A stretch of DNA of 33,886 nucleotides, taken from a virus. Taxonomy: Duplodnaviria > Caudoviricetes. Of the stretch, positions 4,646 through 33,176 are shown piece by piece. The stretch is from positions 1-33,886 of IMG/VR virus record IMGVR_UViG_3300030372_003450. One strand, 5' to 3'. Both the position numbers and the translations under genes were made by a program. The number at the start of each line of letters is the position of its first letter. Position 1 is the stretch's first letter. The notes below the pieces were generated by a model. It saw only the letters and a program-made list of their open reading frames with translations. It was not told the origin of the DNA and ran no database searches.

Positions 4646-4653
4646 TAACTTTG
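4646..4653 (+). promoter_or_regulatory. -7 promoter box (TAACTTTG) for terS
   Basis: Intergenic TAnnTTTG ending 4 nt before ATG 4658. Confidence 0.6.
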
Positions 4654-4657
4654 TTAA

Positions 4658-5170
4658 ATGGGAAAGCTAACAGATAAGCAAGAAATGTTTTGTAAAGAGT
4701 ATTTAATTGATCTAAATGCAACACAAGCGGCAATTCGTGCTGGTTACTCCAAAAAGACTGCAAGTGTTATTGCAAATGAAAACCTTATAAAACCTTATAT
4801 TCAAAACAGAATTACAGAATTAAAAGAAAGCCGTTCAAATCGTATTGAAATGACTTCAGACGGCGTTTTAAAAGAACTTAAAAATTGGGTTCAAGGTGAC
4901 TATACTGATTTGATGATGTTAACCGCAAAACAGATAAAAGAACTTGCGCCCGAAATAAGAAGATTAATCACCGGATTCAAAAGAACAACGCGCCGGATTC
5001 CTGGAACTGATGAAGAAGAAATACAAATTGAAATTAAATTCATTGACAAAATCAAAGCAATGGAAATGATTTCAAAACACATTGGTTTTTATGAAAAAGA
5101 TAATTCGCAAAGTAATAAACAACCGATAATAATTAGTTTAGGAGAAGGAACAAAACCCAATGAAGATTGA
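4658..5170 (+). CDS. terS: Terminase small subunit
   Basis: KLTDKQEMFCKEYLIDLNATQAAIRAGYS.KTA...ENL.KP is the Terminase_2 N-terminal signature. Confidence 0.93.
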   Translation: MGKLTDKQEMFCKEYLIDLNATQAAIRAGYSKKTASVIANENLIKPYIQNRITELKESRSNRIEMTSDGVLKELKNWVQGDYTDLMMLTAKQIKELAPEIRRLITGFKRTTRRIPGTDEEEIQIEIKFIDKIKAMEMISKHIGFYEKDNSQSNKQPIIISLGEGTKPNED

Positions 5171-6456
5171 ATCTATTACCAAAACAAAACAACGCGGTTT
5201 ATTATTTAAAAGATAAATCAACAACAGAAATTTTATTTGGTGGTGCCGCCGGTGGTGGTAAATCTGCTTTTGGTTGTTTGTGGTTAATAGAAGGGTGTTT
5301 GTCATATCCGGGTTCACGTTGGTTAATGGGAAGAAGTAAACTAAAAACATTGAAAGAAACAACGCTAAACACTTTCTTTGAAATATCTTCACAACTTGGA
5401 ATAAATGAACATTGGATTTATAACAGTCAAAGCGGTGTTATTCAATTTATAAATGGTAGCCAAATAATATTAAAAGATTTATTTCTTTATCCTTCAGATC
5501 CACATTTTGATTCGCTTGGTTCTTTAGAAATCACCGGAGCATTTATTGACGAATGCAATCAAGTAAATTATAAAGCTTGGCAAGTTGTTAAATCAAGAAT
5601 TAGATACAAGTTAAAAGAATTTGATTTGATTCCGAAAATTTTAGGAAGTTGCAACCCGGCTAAAAATTGGACTTACAAACAATTTTACCGGCCTTACAAA
5701 AACAAAGAACTAATTGAATACAGAAAATTCATTCAGTCACTACCAAAAGATAATCCACATTTACCAAAATCCTATATTGAAAGTTTGAACCAATTGGATG
5801 AGGTAAGCCGACAACGTTTACTTTTGGGGAATTGGGAATACGATGATGATAAAAGCGCATTGATTTCGTATGATGCAATAATGGATTATTGGAACGGTCA
5901 ACAAGTGGAGCCAGGAACAACAAACTATTTAACAATTGATGTTGCAAGGAAAGGAAAAGATAAAACAGTTTTTAGAGTTTGGAAGGGTTTTGTTTGTGTT
6001 AATCGTTTTGAATTTGGCAAATCATTAATTAATGAAGTTGTTGATAAAGCAAAAGAAATACAAAGAGAATATAAAATTAGCAATTCAAATACAATAGCTG
6101 ATGAAGATGGTGTTGGTGGTGGTGTTGTTGATTATCTTGGTTGCATTGGATTCGTTAACAATAGCCGACCGGCACTTGGTGAAAATTATGACAACTTAAA
6201 AAATCAATGTTCTATCCGAATGGCAAAAAGAATTGAAGCGCGTGAAGTTGTGGAAATTTGCAATGATTCAAATATTATTGATATTGTTTCTGAAGAAATG
6301 GAACAAATTAAACTAAAAGACATCGATAAAGATGGAAAATTAGGATTGATTCCAAAAGATAAAATAAAAGCTTTAATTGGCCGTTCGCCGGATGATTGGG
6401 ATTCGATTATGATGCGCGAATACTTTGAGTTGTACGGCGGTTTTTATGTAGATTAA
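5167..6456 (+). CDS. terL: Terminase large subunit
   Basis: Walker A GGAAGGGKS, Walker B AFIDE, coupling motif SCNP, nuclease IDVARKGKD...SPDDWD. Confidence 0.93.
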   Translation: MNLLPKQNNAVYYLKDKSTTEILFGGAAGGGKSAFGCLWLIEGCLSYPGSRWLMGRSKLKTLKETTLNTFFEISSQLGINEHWIYNSQSGVIQFINGSQIILKDLFLYPSDPHFDSLGSLEITGAFIDECNQVNYKAWQVVKSRIRYKLKEFDLIPKILGSCNPAKNWTYKQFYRPYKNKELIEYRKFIQSLPKDNPHLPKSYIESLNQLDEVSRQRLLLGNWEYDDDKSALISYDAIMDYWNGQQVEPGTTNYLTIDVARKGKDKTVFRVWKGFVCVNRFEFGKSLINEVVDKAKEIQREYKISNSNTIADEDGVGGGVVDYLGCIGFVNNSRPALGENYDNLKNQCSIRMAKRIEAREVVEICNDSNIIDIVSEEMEQIKLKDIDKDGKLGLIPKDKIKALIGRSPDDWDSIMMREYFELYGGFYVD

Positions 6457-8632: not shown

Positions 8633-9910
8633 ATGTTTACAAAAAAAACGGCTGAAGAAATCAGCAAAATGGATGAGGTCGAAATAAACGACTATCACAC
8701 GGCTTTAGAAAAGCACAGAGAAGAAAAAGAAGCGGAATTGAACAAATCAATTTCTGAAAAAGCTTCAAACGAAGAATTAACTGCATTAAAAGCGGAAGTT
8801 GCAAAACTTAAAGATTCAGAATTTGAAACAATGAAATCAACTTTAAAAGCGCAAGGAAAAGAAATGGCGAAATTAGTTGAGCAAGTTGAAACTCAAACTG
8901 AAAAAGAAGGTGTTTCATTTACAATGGCAGTTCTTAAAGGACTTAAAGAAAATGAAGAAAACTTAAAAGAAGTTTTAAAGCACGGAAGCGGAACTGTAAA
9001 ACTAGAAATCAAAGCAAGTCAATCGGCGGCGGATATCACTTCCGGTTCTGATTATGCAACTATCGAAAGCGGCATTGGTCAAATTGCAACTCGTCAAGCA
9101 TTAATGAAATCTTTGTTCCCGGTTCAAGCAATTTCGACTGAATATTTGAAATACAATGACCAAGAAACAATTGTTCGTGATGCTGAAAATGTTGCTGGAT
9201 GTGCGGCTTCAACTCCGGATTCAAAAATTACTTGGCAAGTTAGAACGTTGCAAATGAGTAAGGTCCGCGACTACGTGGATCTGTGCGTTGATATGATTGA
9301 AGATTATGATTACGTGGAAGGTGAAATTAGAAATCTTGTTTCTACTGATGTTGCTTTGAAAGTTGACCAACAACTTTTATTAGGTACGGGAGTTTATCCG
9401 GAACTTAATTCAGTTGATGCGGTTGCTTCTACTTTTGGCGCTGGATCTTATGCGGCGGCTATCCAAGATGCAACACTTATCGACTTAATCAAAGTTGGTG
9501 CGGCACAAATATCTGACTTCGGACAAAACAACAAATTTATGGCTAACACGGTTTTATTGAACCCGGTTGATGCGGTAAAAATGCAACTTTTGAAAGATGC
9601 TGATGGTAACTATATCGTACCAAATTGGATTACTTCTGATGGTGTTAACATAGGAGCAATGAGAGTTATTGCTAACCAATTGGTACCGGCAGATGAAATG
9701 TATATTTTTGATTCGACAAAAGGAACAATTTTCCAACGTAGAGGTGCAACGGTTGAAATGGCTTTTGAAAACAGAGAAAACTTTGAAAAAGAGTTAGTAA
9801 CTGTAAAAGCTTACGAACGTTTAAACTTCAGAGTTCGAAACGTAGATGCTAACGCATTCTTACACGTTCCTTCAATTGCAACAGCAGTTGCGGCTATATT
9901 AAAGCCATAA
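8633..9910 (+). CDS. Major capsid protein, HK97 fold, with N-terminal coiled-coil delta domain
   Basis: K/E-rich N-terminal ~120 aa; LLLGTG, LLNPVD...LKDADGNY, FEKELVTVKAYERL...DANAF. Confidence 0.93.
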   Translation: MFTKKTAEEISKMDEVEINDYHTALEKHREEKEAELNKSISEKASNEELTALKAEVAKLKDSEFETMKSTLKAQGKEMAKLVEQVETQTEKEGVSFTMAVLKGLKENEENLKEVLKHGSGTVKLEIKASQSAADITSGSDYATIESGIGQIATRQALMKSLFPVQAISTEYLKYNDQETIVRDAENVAGCAASTPDSKITWQVRTLQMSKVRDYVDLCVDMIEDYDYVEGEIRNLVSTDVALKVDQQLLLGTGVYPELNSVDAVASTFGAGSYAAAIQDATLIDLIKVGAAQISDFGQNNKFMANTVLLNPVDAVKMQLLKDADGNYIVPNWITSDGVNIGAMRVIANQLVPADEMYIFDSTKGTIFQRRGATVEMAFENRENFEKELVTVKAYERLNFRVRNVDANAFLHVPSIATAVAAILKP

Positions 9911-11794: not shown

Positions 11795-12709
11795 ATGTCA
11801 GACAAAAATTGTAATTGCGATGTAATATCGCTAGGAAACACCGGGAAACCGGATTGTTCACTTATTGCAGATGTTGCCGCTTTTCCATTGTTGGATATGG
11901 CAAAAGATTCAAGCGGTGCGCCAAAAGAAAGATTGAAATCAGATTTAACAACTTTCGCAACTTTAGAACCGTTATTGAATGCGGCTTCACCTTTAAACAG
12001 AATTTACCCAATCGGTAAATTTGAAAATGTTGAACACAACCGCGAAGATGATGTGTTTTGGTCAGCAAATAGTGGAAAACAAGCTTTCGTTAGAGAAGGA
12101 TTTAAAACTTTTCAAGGTTTTATTATAAACGCACCAAGAGAATTAACTGCAAAGTTAAACGAAAACGCGTGTCAGTCTTTCGGATTTCACTTCATTGATG
12201 ATTCTAATCAATTGGTTACTAAAAAGGGAAGTGATGCAACAAAATGTAAGCCGATTTTAATTGATAGCGATACTTTTAGAACTAAGTACGTTGAAGCAAC
12301 TAATGATGCTCCGGCTATGTTGATGCTATCTTTCCAATGGAAAAGCACAGAAAAAGATGCTGATATTACTGTTGTTGGTGGTTTAGATTATACCGGTTCG
12401 GATTTATACGGTTTGTTAGATGCTGATGCGGTTTATTCTTCAATTTCTGCTTCCGGATTTACTGCAACAATCACTACAAGTGCTTACGGAACTGCGGTTG
12501 AAGGTTTAACACTTTCGGACTTTACACTTACTGAAATTTCACCAACTCCTGGAGCGGTTGTTATTTCTTCAGTTACCGAATCAAGTGCGGGTGTTTATGA
12601 TATAGTTGCAAGTACTACAAGTGCAGATGTTGTGAGATTATCTGCTTCTAAAGATAGATTTGATTTTGCTGAAATGTCAGATGGAACAAATGACATAACA
12701 ATTCCTTAA
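11795..12709 (+). CDS. Probable major tail tube protein with C-terminal Ig-like extension
   Basis: Own promoter box, very A-rich leader, LGNTGKPDC N-terminus, S/T-rich beta C-terminus; upstream of the tape measure. Confidence 0.7.
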   Translation: MSDKNCNCDVISLGNTGKPDCSLIADVAAFPLLDMAKDSSGAPKERLKSDLTTFATLEPLLNAASPLNRIYPIGKFENVEHNREDDVFWSANSGKQAFVREGFKTFQGFIINAPRELTAKLNENACQSFGFHFIDDSNQLVTKKGSDATKCKPILIDSDTFRTKYVEATNDAPAMLMLSFQWKSTEKDADITVVGGLDYTGSDLYGLLDADAVYSSISASGFTATITTSAYGTAVEGLTLSDFTLTEISPTPGAVVISSVTESSAGVYDIVASTTSADVVRLSASKDRFDFAEMSDGTNDITIP

Positions 12710-16800: not shown

Positions 16801-17032
16801 GTATTCAAGCGGAATGTTTGACCAAAACGTTTTAATTCATCCACAAGTTGCGGCATTAAATCAACCTTTCCAAAATAGCAACGAGATATTAAAGAAATTT
16901 GATAGTTTAGAAAGCACAATCAGAAACAAACCGATTCTTTCGGATTTAAAATTTGATGATTTACAAAAAGCTTTGGTTGTAACGGTTGAACAAAACGGTG
17001 ATTTGAAACGCGCACACTATAAACTAAAATAG
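13874..17032 (+). CDS. Tail tape measure protein (TP901-family domain)
   Basis: 1052 aa, helical; AKRLGSITSFTAQDV...TLSLAAATG..L.EAA...LSSAWEG core. Confidence 0.92.
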   Translation: MPQKIENKDIFSQDFLQPQIKSFKEIIELIKLMESEMKDVLKVQQQLVKTSDKKSVEGLKKRQRAVQSVNQVSKEMLKLEKQRKVASSQLQLAETKEAKAVQATRIELARKKKAVKQEILAEKGLVSEYQKQSARLNDLRKKYKDLILVQGKETRATRKLRKEIGTLDRRLKRVDASVGQFQRSVGNYGKAFGKVSGVLSRFGLAVGGLAIVRNIGNIFMGFEQQSANLASVLGKTSEQITALTKDAKRLGSITSFTAQDVLKLQTEFAKLGLNETQILNATEATLSLAAATGTELSEAAAVAGATLGGFGLGASETQRVVDVMAKSFSTSALDMEKFKESMKTAAPAARAVGISVEETTALLGTLASAGISGSKAGNNLKTSLINLNKAGLTLEEGLEKVANSENKLGAATELVGKNAAASFLVLAEGRKTTDELTEGLNNAGGAAERMAKTQLDTLSGQTKLLSSAWEGFILSLEDGGGVLGGVMGNAIRFVTELLGLMTDTKDSVADVVAEQMKFNIEFNESIQAVNDANIPLDARKVIIDDINEKYGEYLPSLITEKTTLEEITEIQKQFNIQAKERLLLASKQALLNKAAKDQERILNQIVALRTGVFEGLTLGEEQVIKSIRAYGAEEEQIEKLTKVYAGYTDIIAKYTDTTEEAVIETEELTEANEESADSTNKTTKAVAKQLTGLAKLKKELSDVRKLRSDELIANGETFLFQRYTDQTKELTTQIELLEARLKLSEEGFEKAKKRDIQEGQTREKATEEAMKDLKNLSNVQVESAEEVAENDKKYYQERLTALKQFSQKAIQIANAKTDKEIENTNKEIEASKTRQSELQQLAAQGNLTAEQSVSAEIKRELELERQKEALEKKKARRQIIIEGLDLLSSKIDGGEKDAVTSTLNDMTRLLGALAALPGFIDGTETTVGEALGKPQLNTGQDDYIIRVDGKEKILNPAMSARTGNMTTEEITRAAEMYSSGMFDQNVLIHPQVAALNQPFQNSNEILKKFDSLESTIRNKPILSDLKFDDLQKALVVTVEQNGDLKRAHYKLK

Positions 17033-25897: not shown

Positions 25898-27082
25898 ATG
25901 AAAAAACGGTTACGATTAACAGACGAAGAAGCGAAAATTTTAGGTTTAAAAATTCCTCAAACAAAGAAGCATAAAAATGCAAGATATACAATTACCGCCG
26001 AAGAATTGAAAGAAGTTTATGCTTTACGTGGTTACGATCCGGCGTTAATTGGTGAATGTATTGATAAAGGTATTTCACCGGAAAAAATCCGGCATTATTG
26101 GCACAAATCGGAACATTTTTCTTTAAATGTCCAAGAAGAAAAACAAGACCAAACGGTAAAAATTGGTGAAGTATTTGATGAAATTATTGAAAAGCATTTA
26201 AAAGACTTTACACCATTAAAGCGAACACAACCAACAAAAAAATCAAATAAAGCTTTAAAAGTAACTATTACCGATTCACACGTTGGAATGAATCCAAATC
26301 CGGCAAACAATTCACTTTTTCAATACGAATATAATTCAGAAATTTACAATCAATCAATTGCAAAAGTTTATAATTCTATTTTAAAAGAACACGCAACTTT
26401 CGGAACATTCGATTTATTGTTACTTGATGATTTAGGTGATTTGGCTGATGGTTGGAACGGTTACACTACGCGCGGCGGTCATACGTTACCGCAAAATATG
26501 AGTAACGCTGAAGTGTTTGAAGTTTGTGTTGATGCCTACGTGAATTTAATTCGTTCTTTAGTTGAAGCAAATGTTGCAAATAAAATTATTTTGCGTTGTG
26601 TTTGCAATGATAATCATTCCGGTGATTTTGCGCTTATCATTAATAAAGGTATTCAAAAGATTATCAATTTAATGTATTCAAAAGATATTGTTGAAGTTGA
26701 TATTTTGGAAAGGTTTATTGAACACCGTACTTATGGCGATCATTGTTTCATTCTTACGCACGGTAAAGATAAAGAACAAATGAGAGGTGGTCTACCGATT
26801 GTTTTAAATGATAAAGCTATTCGATTAATTACGGATTATATTGAGCATTACGAAATCAATTCAAAATTTATTCACGTTGAAAAAGGTGATTTACATCAAA
26901 TAGGCTATCAGCGAACAAAGAAATTTGATTATAGAAATTTTATGTCTTTCGCACCGCCTTCTTCCTGGATTCAGCACAACTTTGGTGATTCTTATTCCGG
27001 TTATTCGATCCAAGTAATACCAAAATTTAATAATGAAATTTCACATACTGACTACTTTATTAACTATGATAAAAGGAATTAA
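25898..27082 (+). CDS. Calcineurin-like metallophosphoesterase
   Basis: TDSHVG, LGDLADG, NDNHS, THG, GDLHQ motifs in canonical order. Confidence 0.85.
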   Translation: MKKRLRLTDEEAKILGLKIPQTKKHKNARYTITAEELKEVYALRGYDPALIGECIDKGISPEKIRHYWHKSEHFSLNVQEEKQDQTVKIGEVFDEIIEKHLKDFTPLKRTQPTKKSNKALKVTITDSHVGMNPNPANNSLFQYEYNSEIYNQSIAKVYNSILKEHATFGTFDLLLLDDLGDLADGWNGYTTRGGHTLPQNMSNAEVFEVCVDAYVNLIRSLVEANVANKIILRCVCNDNHSGDFALIINKGIQKIINLMYSKDIVEVDILERFIEHRTYGDHCFILTHGKDKEQMRGGLPIVLNDKAIRLITDYIEHYEINSKFIHVEKGDLHQIGYQRTKKFDYRNFMSFAPPSSWIQHNFGDSYSGYSIQVIPKFNNEISHTDYFINYDKRN

Positions 27083-27093
27083 ACAAAAATGTT

Positions 27094-27101
27094 TACATTT
27101 G
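27094..27101 (+). promoter_or_regulatory. -7 promoter box (TACATTTG) with no downstream CDS
   Basis: TAnnTTTG 11 nt after the phosphoesterase stop; a terminator hairpin follows ~40 nt later. Confidence 0.5.
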
Positions 27102-27104
27102 TGA

Positions 27105-27171
27105 AATATGTTCTTCATATATTTGTTTTTAGTTTAGGATTTCGCGGTTAATAGCCGCGATTTCTGTTTTT
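27105..27171 (+). ncRNA. Candidate small antisense RNA complementary to early-gene translation initiation regions
   Basis: Bounded by a -7 box and a terminator. Body TTCTTCATATATTTGTTTTTAGTTT is the reverse complement of AAACTAAAAACAAATATATGAAGAA. Ends are approximate. Confidence 0.5.
27142..27171 (+). terminator. Intrinsic terminator at the late/early boundary
   Basis: TCGCGGTT-aat-AGCCGCGA followed by TTTCTGTTTTT. Confidence 0.75.
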
Positions 27172-27270
27172 ATACAAAAAAACTTCAAAAAAACTTTCGT
27201 TCTAAAAGCCTTATAAACATTGACTTTTTAAAAATAATCTATATTTTTTTATATTTTATAGTAGGATATT

Positions 27271-27291
27271 AAATATAGTTTTCTATATTTG
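27271..27291 (+). promoter_or_regulatory. Early promoter -7 box embedded in a palindrome
   Basis: AAATATAG-tttt-CTATATTT-G; TATATTTG at 27284-27291. Confidence 0.65.
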
Positions 27292-27321
27292 TTACCAACA
27301 AACAAACAAAAACAAATTATT

Positions 27322-27552
27322 ATGAAAAATTTAACAGACGAACAAAAAATTAAAATTATTACAAATGAAGCTAATTATTGGACTTCAGTATTAAATGAAT
27401 GTACTAAAGAAGATGTTTATTTTTTAGCTGAAAAAATGGAAATAAATACAATACATCCAACATCGAAACGAAAAGTAAACAAGAATGATTTAATATCACT
27501 TATCAAATACAACAAGGCTGCTGAAATGCGAGATTTTTTAAGAAATAAATAA
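27322..27552 (+). CDS. First early gene; possible Rho_N/HeH-like motif
   Basis: ATG 27322 preferred because TTG 27289 lies inside the promoter. KEDVYFLAEKMEI...KVNKNDLISLI resembles helix-extension-helix motifs. Confidence 0.6.
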   Translation: MKNLTDEQKIKIITNEANYWTSVLNECTKEDVYFLAEKMEINTIHPTSKRKVNKNDLISLIKYNKAAEMRDFLRNK

Positions 27553-27560
27553 AAAACAAA

Positions 27561-27577
27561 GGGGGTGAAATTCCCCC
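27561..27577 (+). other. Short GC hairpin between early genes
   Basis: GGGGG-tgaaatt-CCCCC without a good U-tract. Confidence 0.5.
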
Positions 27578-27604
27578 ATTTATAAACAACTAAAAACAAA
27601 CAAA

Positions 27605-27799
27605 GTGAAAAACGAAACAATCACCGCAAAAGCAAATAAAAGCAAAAGAACTTTCACAATTCGTAAATATATTGATGGAAAACTATTCGCAAAATATAGA
27701 ACATTTGAAATGTCAGATGATGATTTTTTTGCTGAAGAAATGAACACAGAAAATGATTGGAAAGCCTTTTTGAAATCTGATTATTATTTTGAGGTATGA
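27605..27799 (+). CDS. Hypothetical early protein
   Basis: GTG start after an AACTAAAAACAAA leader. Confidence 0.65.
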   Translation: MKNETITAKANKSKRTFTIRKYIDGKLFAKYRTFEMSDDDFFAEEMNTENDWKAFLKSDYYFEV

Positions 27800-27915
27800 A
27801 AGAACTTCAAAAACTATTAAAGCAAGTTGAACAATTTAAAAAACTTGGTTACGAACCGCACTATTATCAATGGCACACAAAACGAATTTTTGAACTTAAA
27901 AACAAATTAAAATGA
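27796..27915 (+). CDS. Hypothetical early protein, 39 aa (not in ORF track)
   Basis: MKELQKLLKQVEQFKKLGYEPHYYQWHTKRIFELKNKLK; ATGA overlaps at both ends. Confidence 0.6.
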   Translation: MKELQKLLKQVEQFKKLGYEPHYYQWHTKRIFELKNKLK

Positions 27916-28193
27916 AAGAAACATTAAAAGAACTATTAAGAGAAAAACCAAATTCAATTGGTTGCATTTTTGTAAAAGGTAAAACAATTTTATATCTTCA
28001 ATACTCAGCTAAGAACTGGCACTACAAACTACATTTTTTAAACGATGATTTGCTTGAAATTGAAATGATTTGTGATGATGTTGGTGATACGGTTATGTTT
28101 GGCGAATCAATCGGAACAGACCGCGACATTTTAAACGAAATTAGTTTCGAAATTCATCCTTCAATTATTGAACATAAATCGCAAATGGTATGA
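27912..28193 (+). CDS. Hypothetical early protein
   Basis: 93-aa ORF coupled by ATGA overlaps. Confidence 0.65.
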   Translation: MKETLKELLREKPNSIGCIFVKGKTILYLQYSAKNWHYKLHFLNDDLLEIEMICDDVGDTVMFGESIGTDRDILNEISFEIHPSIIEHKSQMV

Positions 28194-28291
28194 AAAACAA
28201 AAAAGCACTTTTATCTTTTTGGGATAATTTCAACACCGAACTTTACTACAAATATTTAAAACTAAAAACAACTAAAAATGAAAACAATTAA
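28190..28291 (+). CDS. Hypothetical early peptide, 33 aa (not in ORF track)
   Basis: MKNKKALLSFWDNFNTELYYKYLKLKTTKNENN; ATGA overlap with the upstream gene. Confidence 0.5.
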   Translation: MKNKKALLSFWDNFNTELYYKYLKLKTTKNENN

Positions 28292-28490
28292 CGACTTAAA
28301 AAAAACAATAACAGAATCAAATGTTATTGATTACACAATTGAACAAGGAATCACTTTTAAAAATACTTTTACAATTCAGCTAACAACAAAAGAAGTTTTT
28401 TCAATGCCGGTTGGATATAATGTAACATCTTTTTCATTTTCAGCATTACCGGATTCAAAAGCAATTATTTCATTCACCGTAAATTTTTAA
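28278..28490 (+). CDS. Hypothetical early protein
   Basis: 70-aa ORF with an AAACTAAAAACAA leader. Confidence 0.6.
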   Translation: MKTINDLKKTITESNVIDYTIEQGITFKNTFTIQLTTKEVFSMPVGYNVTSFSFSALPDSKAIISFTVNF

Positions 28491-28492
28491 TT

Positions 28493-28687
28493 ATGAAAGT
28501 AGGAAATAAAATTAAACAACTAAAGAAAGAACACAAGGTGACACGCAAAGAAATTGCAAAAGCTACTAAAATTGATGTTCTAACAATCAAAGCAATTGAA
28601 GAAAACAATAATGGCAATCTTTCCAGGATCAAAAAAATATTTTTATTCTTTGGATATGATGCCGAAATTGTACTAAAGAAAAAATAA
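28493..28687 (+). CDS. XRE-family helix-turn-helix regulator (Cro-like)
   Basis: VGNKIKQLKKEHKVTRKEIAKATKIDVLTIKAIEEN matches the HTH_XRE pattern. Confidence 0.8.
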   Translation: MKVGNKIKQLKKEHKVTRKEIAKATKIDVLTIKAIEENNNGNLSRIKKIFLFFGYDAEIVLKKK

Positions 28688-28697
28688 AAACTAATAA

Positions 28698-28729
28698 TTG
28701 CATTTTTTAGATATAATTTTATATATTTG
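28698..28729 (+). promoter_or_regulatory. Bacteroidota sigma70-type promoter (-33 TTG, -7 TATATTTG)
   Basis: TTG 28698-28700, 21-nt spacer, TATATTTG 28722-28729. Confidence 0.7.
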
Positions 28730-28752
28730 CAATGAACTTAAAAACAAATCAA

Positions 28753-29253
28753 ATGAAAACTATTTATCAAAAATTAGCACAAGCAAAATCAGAAATCGGT
28801 GCAATTTCTAAGGATTCAAAAAATCCATTTTACAAATCAAAGTATTTCGATATTAACCAACTATTACAACACGTTGAACCGGTGCTGGAAAAATACGGCT
28901 TAATGATTATGCAACCAATTATTGAAGGAAAAGTTGTTTCACTTATTATTGATGTTGAAACCGGCAAAGATTGCCGAAGCGAAATTCAATTAACTGACGA
29001 ACGCGATCCACAAAAAATAGGTTCACAAATATCTTACTTCAGAAGATACACGCTTTCTTCATTGTTATCTTTACAAGCTGAAGATGATGATGCAAACAAA
29101 GCTATTCCACAAACACAAACAAAAAAGAAATTCACTAAATCTGATGCGGATGGTGAATTTTTAAAAGGTACTCCGGCGGAAGAATTATCCAAAAAGTACA
29201 TTATAACAACTGAACAAATTAACAAATATAAATTACTAACTAAAAACAAATAA
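28753..29253 (+). CDS. erf: ERF-family single-strand annealing protein
   Basis: KNPFYKSKY and DPQKIGSQISYFRRYTLSSLLSLQAEDDDAN (ERF GS..(S/T)Y..RY signature). ATG 28753 preferred over 28732. Confidence 0.9.
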   Translation: MKTIYQKLAQAKSEIGAISKDSKNPFYKSKYFDINQLLQHVEPVLEKYGLMIMQPIIEGKVVSLIIDVETGKDCRSEIQLTDERDPQKIGSQISYFRRYTLSSLLSLQAEDDDANKAIPQTQTKKKFTKSDADGEFLKGTPAEELSKKYIITTEQINKYKLLTKNK

Positions 29254-29255
29254 AA

Positions 29256-29744
29256 ATGAAAACATCACTTTATCAAATCGAAACAGAACACCTTGCATTG
29301 ATGCAACAAATTGAAAATGCTGAAGGTGAAATTACTGAAGAAATTGCGGAGCAACTTGAAATTAACGAATCACAATTGCAAAGCAAATCAATTGCATATT
29401 TATCAGTAATAAAATCAAAAGAATCTTTTAATTCGCAAATTGACGAAGAAATTAAGCGATTACAAGCAATGAAAAAGCGAAACAATAACCTTGTAACAAA
29501 CTTAAAAAATCGTTTGCTAGATGCCGTTAAATTGTTCGGTGAGTTTGAAAGCGGATTATCCAAATTTGGAACGCGAAAAAGTTCTTCAGTTGAGGTTGAA
29601 AATGTAAATGCTTTACCGAAGGAATTTAAAGTTATTAAAGTAACCGAACAAGCTGATAAATCAGCATTGAAGAAAGCGATCAAAGAAGGCCAGGAAATAG
29701 AAGGCGTTTCAATAGTTGAAAAACTAAATCTTAAAATAAATTAA
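29256..29744 (+). CDS. Siphovirus Gp157-family protein
   Basis: SLYQI..E, IDEEIKRLQAMKK, RKSSSVEV...LPKEF...DKSALKKAIKEGQEIEG. Confidence 0.88.
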   Translation: MKTSLYQIETEHLALMQQIENAEGEITEEIAEQLEINESQLQSKSIAYLSVIKSKESFNSQIDEEIKRLQAMKKRNNNLVTNLKNRLLDAVKLFGEFESGLSKFGTRKSSSVEVENVNALPKEFKVIKVTEQADKSALKKAIKEGQEIEGVSIVEKLNLKIN

Positions 29745-29812
29745 AAAAAGCGTACAATATAAATAAATAAAACAACAATTCAAAGAGTGTTAAACAAGCA
29801 AAAAGTAAAATT

Positions 29813-30151
29813 ATGAGTTTAGAAATTAAAGGAACAATCAAAACAATAGGTGAAACTATTGAAGGCGGTAAAGGTGAAAAAACTTGGCAAAAAATGTTTT
29901 ATACCATTGACACCGGTGAGCAATACGACAATATTATTTCATTTGAAATATTTAGTCAAGACAAGATTGAACAGTTCCGAAAATGGAATGTTATTGGCGA
30001 TAAAGTAACCGTTCATTTTAACATTAAGTGCCGGGAATGGGAAGGTAAATACTTCACCAATCTTTCATCTTGGCGATGTGTTAAAGATGTTGCAGAAACA
30101 ACGGAAGCACCGCAACCAATTGAAGAAGGTGCTGATGATTTGCCATTTTGA
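29813..30151 (+). CDS. DUF3127-like single-stranded DNA-binding protein
   Basis: LEIKGTI...WQK...IGDKVTVHFNIKCREWEGKYFT.L..W and an acidic DDLPF tail. Confidence 0.85.
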   Translation: MSLEIKGTIKTIGETIEGGKGEKTWQKMFYTIDTGEQYDNIISFEIFSQDKIEQFRKWNVIGDKVTVHFNIKCREWEGKYFTNLSSWRCVKDVAETTEAPQPIEEGADDLPF

Positions 30152-30200
30152 ATTAATCAATTAAAAAAAATAGGATTTAAACCAATAAAAACAAAAACAA

Positions 30201-30617
30201 ATGAAAACAAAAAGAAGAATACAAGACAAAACAATCGACAAAGCGTTTAATTATTTGCAAGAATTACACCACGTTTTGACCATAACCGATTCAGTTAATT
30301 TAACAAAGCTTTCAACGGTTCACAAAGTTTCCAAAACTTACGGAACATTATTGTTAAGAAACAATTTGTTAGTTAGAACAAAAAACGGTGCTTTGCGTTG
30401 GGCAACAATTGATCCAAGCCGAGAAATGGCAATTGAACTTGTAAGAAGGGCAAATGAATATCAATATAATTCTTTTGCTAAAAAAGAAAAGAACAAAGAA
30501 CAAGTTGCAATTGATTTCACAAAAAAACAAATATCGAAAACAGTTGTTCCAGGAAAAGAAAAACAAACAAAAAAAACATTCAATTTATTTTGGGGGTTAT
30601 TAAAATTCGATTATTAA
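30201..30617 (+). CDS. Hypothetical protein, possibly winged-helix
   Basis: 138 aa, ending FNLFWGLLKFDY. Confidence 0.6.
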   Translation: MKTKRRIQDKTIDKAFNYLQELHHVLTITDSVNLTKLSTVHKVSKTYGTLLLRNNLLVRTKNGALRWATIDPSREMAIELVRRANEYQYNSFAKKEKNKEQVAIDFTKKQISKTVVPGKEKQTKKTFNLFWGLLKFDY

Positions 30618-30625
30618 AAACCAAT

Positions 30626-30654
30626 AGAAGGGAGTTAAACACTCCTTTCTTTTT
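30626..30654 (+). terminator. Intrinsic terminator-like hairpin
   Basis: AGAAGGGAGT-taaac-ACTCCTTTCT followed by TTTT. Confidence 0.65.
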
Positions 30655-30667
30655 AAAACTAAAAACA

Positions 30668-31063
30668 ATGTATCAAGCACACTATTTAACAGAAATCGGA
30701 ATAAAAAAATATAAAGCAACTATTTCAACAAATCATTTGCTGGAGATCAGAAGAAATAAACCAACACCGCAAAAATGTGAAAATTTGATTCGATTAGTAT
30801 TTAATTATTTTGATATACCAACGGAAATGATGAAATCCAAATCTAGGAAAAGGGAAATTATTTTTGCAAGACAATTTGCAAGTTATTTTTTAAAACAAGA
30901 ATTTAATAATTTAAGCCTTCAAAAAATAGCTGATTATTTCGGTCAACATCATTCTTCCATAGTTCATTCAATAAAACAAATAAACAATTTGATTGAATAC
31001 GATTTGGAAAGTAAAGAACATCACAAAAATATTATGCAAAAAGTAATTGAAATGTATAAATAA
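30668..31063 (+). CDS. DnaA C-terminal (domain IV)-like HTH protein
   Basis: KSRKREIIFARQ...LSLQKIADYFGQHHSSIVHSIKQI. ATG 30668 preferred because 30590 would read through a terminator. Confidence 0.85.
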   Translation: MYQAHYLTEIGIKKYKATISTNHLLEIRRNKPTPQKCENLIRLVFNYFDIPTEMMKSKSRKREIIFARQFASYFLKQEFNNLSLQKIADYFGQHHSSIVHSIKQINNLIEYDLESKEHHKNIMQKVIEMYK

Positions 31064-31076
31064 ATTTGTATTTTTG
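31047..31076 (+). promoter_or_regulatory. Promoter of the replication operon (-33 TTG, -7 TATTTTTG)
   Basis: TTG 31047-31049, 19-nt spacer, TATTTTTG 31069-31076. Confidence 0.65.
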
Positions 31077-31081
31077 TAAAA

Positions 31082-31172
31082 GTTGCGGTCTAACAATATA
31101 GCAACAAAAAGAATTATTGGAAGCCTATAATGATAAAAGAAGTTAGACCCTTTTTGATTTATGGGCTTTTTT
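31082..31172 (+). ncRNA. Structured 5' leader with two loop-complementary hairpins (candidate attenuator)
   Basis: Loop 1 GGTCTAAC (31087-31094) is the exact reverse complement of loop 2 GTTAGACC (31142-31149). Hairpin 2 ends in a T tract. Confidence 0.6.
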
Positions 31173-31214
31173 ATGAATTAAATTTTATTGGTTTTTTAAA
31201 AACCTTTATTTATT

Positions 31215-33164: not shown

Positions 33165-33176
33165 AAAAACAAATAA

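Follow-up and report, generated by a model that had tools for sequence, protein, structure and literature searches.

At the late-early junction of a phage genome, after the last late gene and ahead of the early promoter, positions 27094-27171 comprise a box of the sigmaA type, a body rich in U and an intrinsic terminator, and we conclude that this unit is a real, conserved, non-coding regulatory element. Our preferred reading, to which we give a probability of roughly 0.55 from the sequence, is that the element yields a trans-acting small RNA that is antisense to early-gene leaders and would repress translation of the early genes.

The window analyzed here is the whole virus record IMGVR_UViG_3300030372_003450 (33,886 nt), a complete phage genome which has direct terminal repeats and 32% G+C and carries all but one of its called genes on the + strand. 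The late module is siphovirus-like, with terminase, portal, capsid, tape measure and CHAP lysin, and the early region contains an HTH gene, Erf, Gp157, a DUF3127 SSB, a DnaA_C-domain gene, a helicase and methyltransferases; the names Gp157, DnaA_C, DUF3127, Erf-like, methyltransferase, terminase, portal and capsid were taken from protein family scans. Since the closest cultured terminases are those of Cellulophaga phi10:1 (66%) and Flavobacterium 11b (57%), the host is likely a member of the Flavobacteriaceae. BLAST of 26500-30500 against cultured phages gave no match. The start codon of terS lies only 4 nt past a TAACTTTG box (window 4646-4660), and the terS mRNA is for this reason probably leaderless.

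Anatomy of the unit and its fit to early-gene leaders

The unit, present once in the phage genome, starts 11 nt past the stop codon of a phosphoesterase/exonuclease-like gene (25898-27082, + strand), the last gene of the late/lysis side. Its box, TACATTTG at 27094-27101 (+), has the sigmaA-type -7 form TAnnTTTG in the sequence and in the alignment of relatives, and is predicted to be a promoter without a -33 TTG. Because the Flavobacterium sigmaA box is placed at -12 to -5 in the accessible text of the relevant study (PMC9723704), the RNA is predicted to start at 27106 and to extend for about 65 nt to 27171 (+). Pairing probabilities predict a weak 5' hairpin at 27106-27120 (+) with the anti-start CAU in its 3' arm, in agreement with the proposal in the initial annotation that such a hairpin could mask the anti-AUG; its columns are nearly invariant in relatives and show no covariation. 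The anti-start segment UUCAU, the complement of AUGAA/GUGAA, occupies 27114-27118 (+) and is followed by a seed against the A-rich early leaders (27120-27136, +), which is predicted to be exposed, with an unpaired probability above 0.9 over most of its length; in the predicted fold the open U-rich stretch spans 27121-27136. The predicted terminator, a hairpin with a U tract (27137-27171, +), is likely also the end of the late operon; the GC hairpin and T tract originally described were recovered as a terminator-like hairpin at 27142-27160, the core of this element, with the U tract on the + strand only. The fold z score is about -3.4 to -3.8. Downstream lies the early promoter box (27284-27291, +), recognized in the sequence and conserved in the family.

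The initial annotation proposed that the body is antisense to the start regions of many early genes, and every position that it claimed for the box and the leader complements was confirmed on the sequence. A perfect complement of at least 10 nt is present at the starts of 9 of 17 early genes, whereas 2 of 13 middle genes and 1 of 26 late genes have one in their start regions (early versus late, P=0.0007). In the composition-matched control that had been called for, 1000 dinucleotide shuffles gave a mean of 0.38 and a maximum of 7 early matches, so that none reached the nine observed, and no other 36-nt + strand window of the phage genome gave more than four.

The predicted targets, all on the + strand, begin with the leaders of the first early gene 27322 (10 nt at 27308-27317), of genes 27605 (13 nt at 27588-27600), 27912 (11 nt at 27897-27907) and 28278 (13 nt at 28259-28271), and of the Erf-like gene 28753 (11 nt at 28739-28749). 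They continue with the Gp157/Gam-like gene 29256 (15 nt at 29238-29252), which has the strongest cofold gain (-19.5 kcal/mol), gene 30201 (10 nt at 30193-30202), the DnaA_C-domain gene 30668 (13 nt at 30656-30668) and the methyltransferase gene 33177 (11 nt at 33165-33175). Two further predicted targets, the leaders of methyltransferase gene 2360 (14 nt at 2346-2359, +) and of gene 409 (10 nt at 397-406, +), were absent from the initial annotation, as was the sole late exception, 10 nt at 17020-17029 before tail gene 17034. Complements also occur inside coding regions, 13 nt at 5337-5349 (terL) and 12 nt at 30523-30534, and none of 10 nt or more to the body is present in the start regions of key replication genes (SSB, rep, helicase) and of the HTH gene.

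Eight of the nine matched early genes start with ATGAA or GTGAA, as had been said of most targets. The terS and portal leaders, described as lacking the motif, have complements of 6 nt each, the same as the gene at 11795, and the capsid leader, credited with a short match only, has 7 nt. Cofolding predicts that the duplexes extend to +7 to +13 in most matched genes, and the mean gain, folding costs included, is -11.0 kcal/mol for early versus -5.8 kcal/mol for late genes (P=0.0009). The seed-leader pairing is almost entirely A-U.

GC hairpins at 27561-27577 and 30631-30645 directly precede A-rich early leaders and are kept in relatives; it is possible that they are stems for processing or stabilization, or joints at which exchangeable early cassettes recombine.

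Conservation in the phage family and like units in other phages

A metagenome pattern scan returned 28 loci, of which 22 belong to the phage family of the window and lie at the same late-early junction, one of them being identical to the window; the other six are unrelated gene starts or chance. TAnnTTTG is kept in all 22, and in the 18 aligned distinct rows TA and TTTG are invariant and the two n positions vary. The search pattern included the body and TTTG but not TA, and body conservation in these loci is consequently in part circular. A freer test came from contigs of RNA libraries, which were found with a 4.3-kb query and were not selected on the body. In three runs, these contigs were free of substitutions over 27080-27141 and differed there by a single 1-nt deletion (at 27135); by comparison, 19 positions were changed within the preceding 100 bases of coding sequence and 8 within the hairpin, where two pairs were compensatory. 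Such contigs, from six runs (seven contained 5-10% of the query words), extend straight through the unit; they are assembled sequences that carry no start, end or strand information and may include DNA.

In the terminator, 162 of 162 cells are paired across the 18 distinct rows and three of nine pairs have changed on both sides, counts that cannot be converted to a probability as the rows are related. A -33 TTG is found upstream of the unit box in none of the 22 relatives, and the terS and portal boxes of the window likewise have none; the early promoter box has one in 9 of 15 relatives. A small peptide encoded on the minus strand was rejected as a candidate, the frame ranging from 4 to 42 codons across the 22 relatives and not being kept. 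The 35 bases past the terminator are also 93% conserved in the family. From the terminator to the early promoter there is an A-tract-rich block (27166-27283), 83-93% conserved in the family, which is possibly promoter-upstream DNA or related to the genome end.

The unit is retained where the upstream gene or the spacer differs (L002, L412). Across 21 family loci, which are kin and not independent samples, a match of at least 10 nt was present for 101 of 187 genes downstream but for 8 of 62 upstream, and the leader occurs in 27 of 61 downstream protein families that are unrelated to one another. A viral pattern scan with the window's own stem had no hits, and a scan with the conserved DNA past the terminator, intended as an unbiased test, returned two known loci only, one of them cut at the element.

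A box, an anti-start, a U-rich seed and a terminator, arranged in this order, were also found in unrelated phages (G012, G011, L008, L014, L319, L359 and others). The cultured Flavobacterium phage 11b (NC_006356.2) has the unit at 30326, after a phosphoesterase gene and before early genes; in the L475 family a like unit follows a phosphoesterase gene and precedes the early promoter, and in G005 and L185 it is located before head-tail adaptor genes. In several phages (window, L299, L398, L359, L008, L475) the late module ends, right before the unit, with a metallo-phosphoesterase-like gene, and these genes fall into at least two unrelated families. A pattern of the 11b form matched 90 loci, 28 with a terminator, and 26 of those fall in three families. 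The strand of these 28 agrees with that of the neighbours in 24, is opposite in two and is uninformative in two. Among 20 matches of the 11b form with a long opposite-strand ORF, a single one has a terminator.

In three families the seed mirrors the phage's own leader motif, which is AAAAACAAA in the window, AAAACCAAA in 11b and CTTAAACC in the L475 family. AAAACCAAA occurs in 5 of 66 leaders of 11b and 0 of 55 of the window. The window seed matches 11 of 52 of its own start regions, 3 of 66 in 11b and none in four L475-family loci, and the 11b seed matches 7 of 66 of its own and 0 of 52 in the window. The L494 and L530 seeds match 1-3 of 8 leaders in their own family and none of the 8 in any of eight further loci. 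In 11b, some of the best matches belong to small genes that sit as insertions in the late region, and the best matches of the L475 family are the first one to three early genes. In a first automatic test of self-matching, 5 of 15 seeds beat their shuffles at P<0.05. Seed and own leader motif correspond in three of four families but not in the G011/L509 family, whose seeds fit the window leaders (6-7 of 8) better than their own (0-4 of 8).

This exception bears on a different reading, in which the RNA, made in a cell that is already infected, acts mainly against a second incoming phage by silencing the early genes of kin or of other families, as superinfection exclusion or competition. The seed-leader fit of G011 and L509 would be in line with it, as would the commonness of the leader motif in several families, the 7 of 81 start regions of G009 that the window seed also matches, and the retention of the leader by swappable early genes. 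However, three of the four families match themselves best and their host ranges may not overlap, and we consider this reading unlikely, although sequence alone cannot separate it from self-control.

Not every phage searched carries the unit. Among 80 loci collected by Erf, TCAT occurred in 6 of 71 box-to-terminator units, not above permuted words. The detector found no unit in the cultured phages P12024S, snork6-1 and P12002L or in the examined parts of Nekkels_1 and phi46:3, and gave one match of a different shape in cultured phi19:1. With a relaxed viral pattern, of which 120 among about 2900 matches were listed, 10 were flagged and 3 were clean by eye. The unit class is real but not universal, and self-direction is not evident for every look-alike.

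Other arrangements were seen in the course of these scans. Two anti-leader-like units stand in tandem at G006:C1 23071-23223 (L052), on the strand opposite the late genes, and could be two tiny gene starts behind two-way terminators. G005:C1 has at 8962-9027 (-) a second U-rich unit with a terminator, scoring 26.5 bits with the FopS model (cut-off 56). Units of 60-110 nt from box to terminator whose 5' segment complements the terminator hairpin occur at 31069-31175 of the window (31086-31093 region with 31140-31150) and are frequent at Erf loci (L356:2113, L366:13523, L382:2877 and many more); they appear to resemble an attenuator leader before replication genes.

Host chromosomes and described antisense RNAs

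In five Flavobacteriaceae genomes, which stand in for the phage host, the strict anti-leader motif occurred 1-4 times per genome, and the six long genes behind 11 strict matches have mixed functions with none in common. The looser TAAAAACAAA lay within 10 nt of an ATG 50 and 37 times in two such genomes, versus 18 and 23 times in the reversed control. The initial annotation had suggested that host initiation regions might perhaps also be blocked. The counts of the looser motif, together with the report that FopS acts on susC porin messages (PMC11697453, in part), could favor a reading in which the RNA acts mainly on host mRNAs, for receptor removal or metabolic takeover, and the match to phage leaders reflects a common leader style. 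To judge from genome size, however, the looser motif would cover about 1% of host genes versus about half of the early phage genes, and the strict matches are few and functionally mixed. We therefore rate that reading as improbable, and host targets of the RNA look minor.

Chromosome contigs gave 117 matches in a pattern scan, mostly ordinary gene starts; seven had a hairpin and one was by eye a full unit (L076; G013:C146, near 6021). The latter is found at the end of a contig, 6 kb long and assigned to a Bacteroidetes MAG, that may be a binned phage piece. A family model of the unit matched 0 of 151 Flavobacteriaceae genomes in a run without a positive control, which shows little. In Sediminibacterium and kin (L116, L132-L134, L164), a TAACTTTG box, an anti-start and TTTGTTTTTAG form a conserved chromosomal arrangement without terminator before a gene, probably an ordinary leader.

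The element has one general feature of trans-acting bacterial sRNAs, a conserved seed, predicted to be exposed, that complements start regions at other loci. The initial annotation knew of no description of such a mechanism, and this part of its claim did not stand. In the accessible text on Bacteroides thetaiotaomicron, FopS and GibS have such an architecture and block start regions; many PUL messages are bound by FopS RNAs at their start regions, with a block of translation in vitro, and one copy is reported in a Caudovirales phage (PMC11697453). By sequence and predicted fold, the phage unit resembles FopS as described there in its sigmaA TAnnTTTG box, single-stranded 5' part, anti-start UUCAU near the 5' end and Rho-independent terminator. 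Unlike FopS, the element fails the RF04319 covariance model (gathering score 56 bits), with no match at E<=1 in G000; in a control set of 14 genomes, one was over the cut-off, and B. thetaiotaomicron was among the matches. Compared with the 5' ends of FopS-10 and GibS in the primer list of the same paper, 27114-27119 shares only a TTCATA core and the anti-leader differs; in the 11b and G011 families the shared stretch is longer, TTTTTCATAG. FopS, of the Bacteroidaceae, has 12-15 paralogues and targets host PUL messages according to that account, whereas the unit comes from a Flavobacteriaceae-type marine phage, is single copy and has a seed that fits the phage's own early leaders.

GibS of B. 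thetaiotaomicron lays a long AU-rich seed over the start codons of its targets (PMC7366714). As far as that report could be consulted, the likeness to the unit consists in an AU-rich, single-stranded seed of 30-50 nt at start codons, in a phylum without Shine-Dalgarno pairing; unlike the unit, GibS is 145 nt long and chromosomal, with two seeds, its own promoter motif and two shown metabolic targets. The antisense RNA C4, known from phages P1 and P7, acts in P1 against the phage's own immI operon (PMC8198154), and would share with our prediction the post-transcriptional repression of the phage's own genes. As described in the part of that source available, C4 serves lysogeny control of an E. 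coli phage and acts on a single operon (icd, ant), whereas the single seed of the unit matches 9-11 scattered leaders. No c4-icd-ant immunity operon was found in the window, and no integrase or antirepressor family among the 51 phage proteins scanned, but since many small phage genes have no family, the absence of an integrase is no proof of a lytic life style. An Rfam scan of the whole phage genome, C4 model included, gave no match at E<=1.

In phage lambda, short RNAs are reported to steer the lytic programme: OOP, a small RNA of a 2024 preprint (10.1101/2024.10.31.621285) that by its title acts on host replication, and aQ, for which cis action on one gene has been proposed (PMC12197685, in part). 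None of them, as far as we found in the sources at hand, is aimed at a leader motif of a gene class. The accessible text of a 2025 review of phage sRNAs makes no mention of a Bacteroidota phage (PMC12197685), and we found in the literature, with incomplete coverage of subscription papers, no phage RNA directed against a class of its own early leaders. What would be new here is a mechanism in the style of FopS and GibS aimed at the phage's own early genes, which we did not find in print. Of the claim that one RNA addresses the early start regions, the conserved promoter-seed-terminator unit whose exposed part fits early but not structural leaders stands, and the mechanism itself has a described precedent.

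Proposed action of the RNA and its meaning

We propose that the RNA would be transcribed from 27106, or be released as the 3' end of a late transcript that ends at the same terminator. Pairing would begin at the exposed U-rich seed (27120-27136); the weak 5' hairpin would then open and UUCAU would cover the start codon. Initiation in Flavobacterium depends on upstream adenines and not on Shine-Dalgarno pairing, according to the accessible part of one study (PMC6847099). Because Bacteroidota ribosomes rely on these adenines, masking them would stop initiation, a block comparable to that described for FopS-10 on susC (PMC11697453, in part). One RNA of about 65 nt would in this way block translation of about half of the early genes together, in trans. 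It would accumulate from mid-infection and close the early programme of recombination, replication control and accessory functions, and the structural leaders would escape.

A late timing of the RNA is weakly supported. The unit box lacks a -33 TTG, like the terS and portal boxes, and the terminator stands at the end of the late operon, both of which are compatible with late action, but the box is of the host sigmaA type, which would fire early too. Because the terminator likely ends the late operon, late transcription would supply the seed, as a 3' end, even if the unit had no promoter of its own.

Action in trans is favored because the strongest target lies 2.1 kb from the unit, behind a second promoter box (28722). 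Under a cis-only reading, late read-through RNA would fold the anti-leader onto the first early leader and silence that gene alone. In a model of the read-through RNA 27106-27345, 13.5 pairs are expected between the seed and the gene 27322 leader, and the L475 family has its best matches in the first one to three early genes. In each molecule, however, the one seed can mask no more than one leader. Moreover, among the nine matches that of the first leader is the weakest (10 nt), the best is behind another promoter box, and a conserved promoter box would be needless; we hold action confined to cis to be unlikely.

Finally, it seems equally unlikely that the element has no RNA function and is what remains, inverted, of the start of a minus-strand gene, or conserved DNA at a recombination junction: the hairpin-plus-leader modules of early genes (27561-27577, 30631-30645), the minus-strand gene of Cellulophaga phages at the same junction, the conserved DNA past the terminator and the orientation of the G006, G007 and L193 matches against their neighbours' strand speak for it, but no minus-strand TAnnTTTG box lies within 27100-29000, the U tract is on the + strand only, the minus frame is not kept, the body is conserved above adjoining coding DNA, and 24 of 28 further loci in three families have the same polarity.

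The proposed repression of early-gene translation by a trans-acting RNA allows a broader model, which we put forward tentatively and regard as possible rather than probable. In many phages of Bacteroidota, a private A-rich leader would serve as a tag on early and accessory genes, and one RNA from the late-early junction would silence the tagged class, co-evolve with the tag and silence co-infecting phages that share the leader, acting as a protein-free master switch of the lytic programme.

To our knowledge, the way in which small phages that lack an RNA polymerase and sigma factor of their own shut off early genes has been worked out mostly in a few models. If our reading is true, a simple answer would be one 65-nt RNA that reaches a gene class by way of a common leader, and an anti-leader RNA would suit the Shine-Dalgarno-free translation of the Bacteroidota, a phylum of major degraders both in oceans and in guts. 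Since cultured Flavobacterium phage 11b has such a unit at the same junction, the idea is directly testable. If the repression is true, the unit would also be a compact, retargetable repressor for the genetics of Flavobacteria.
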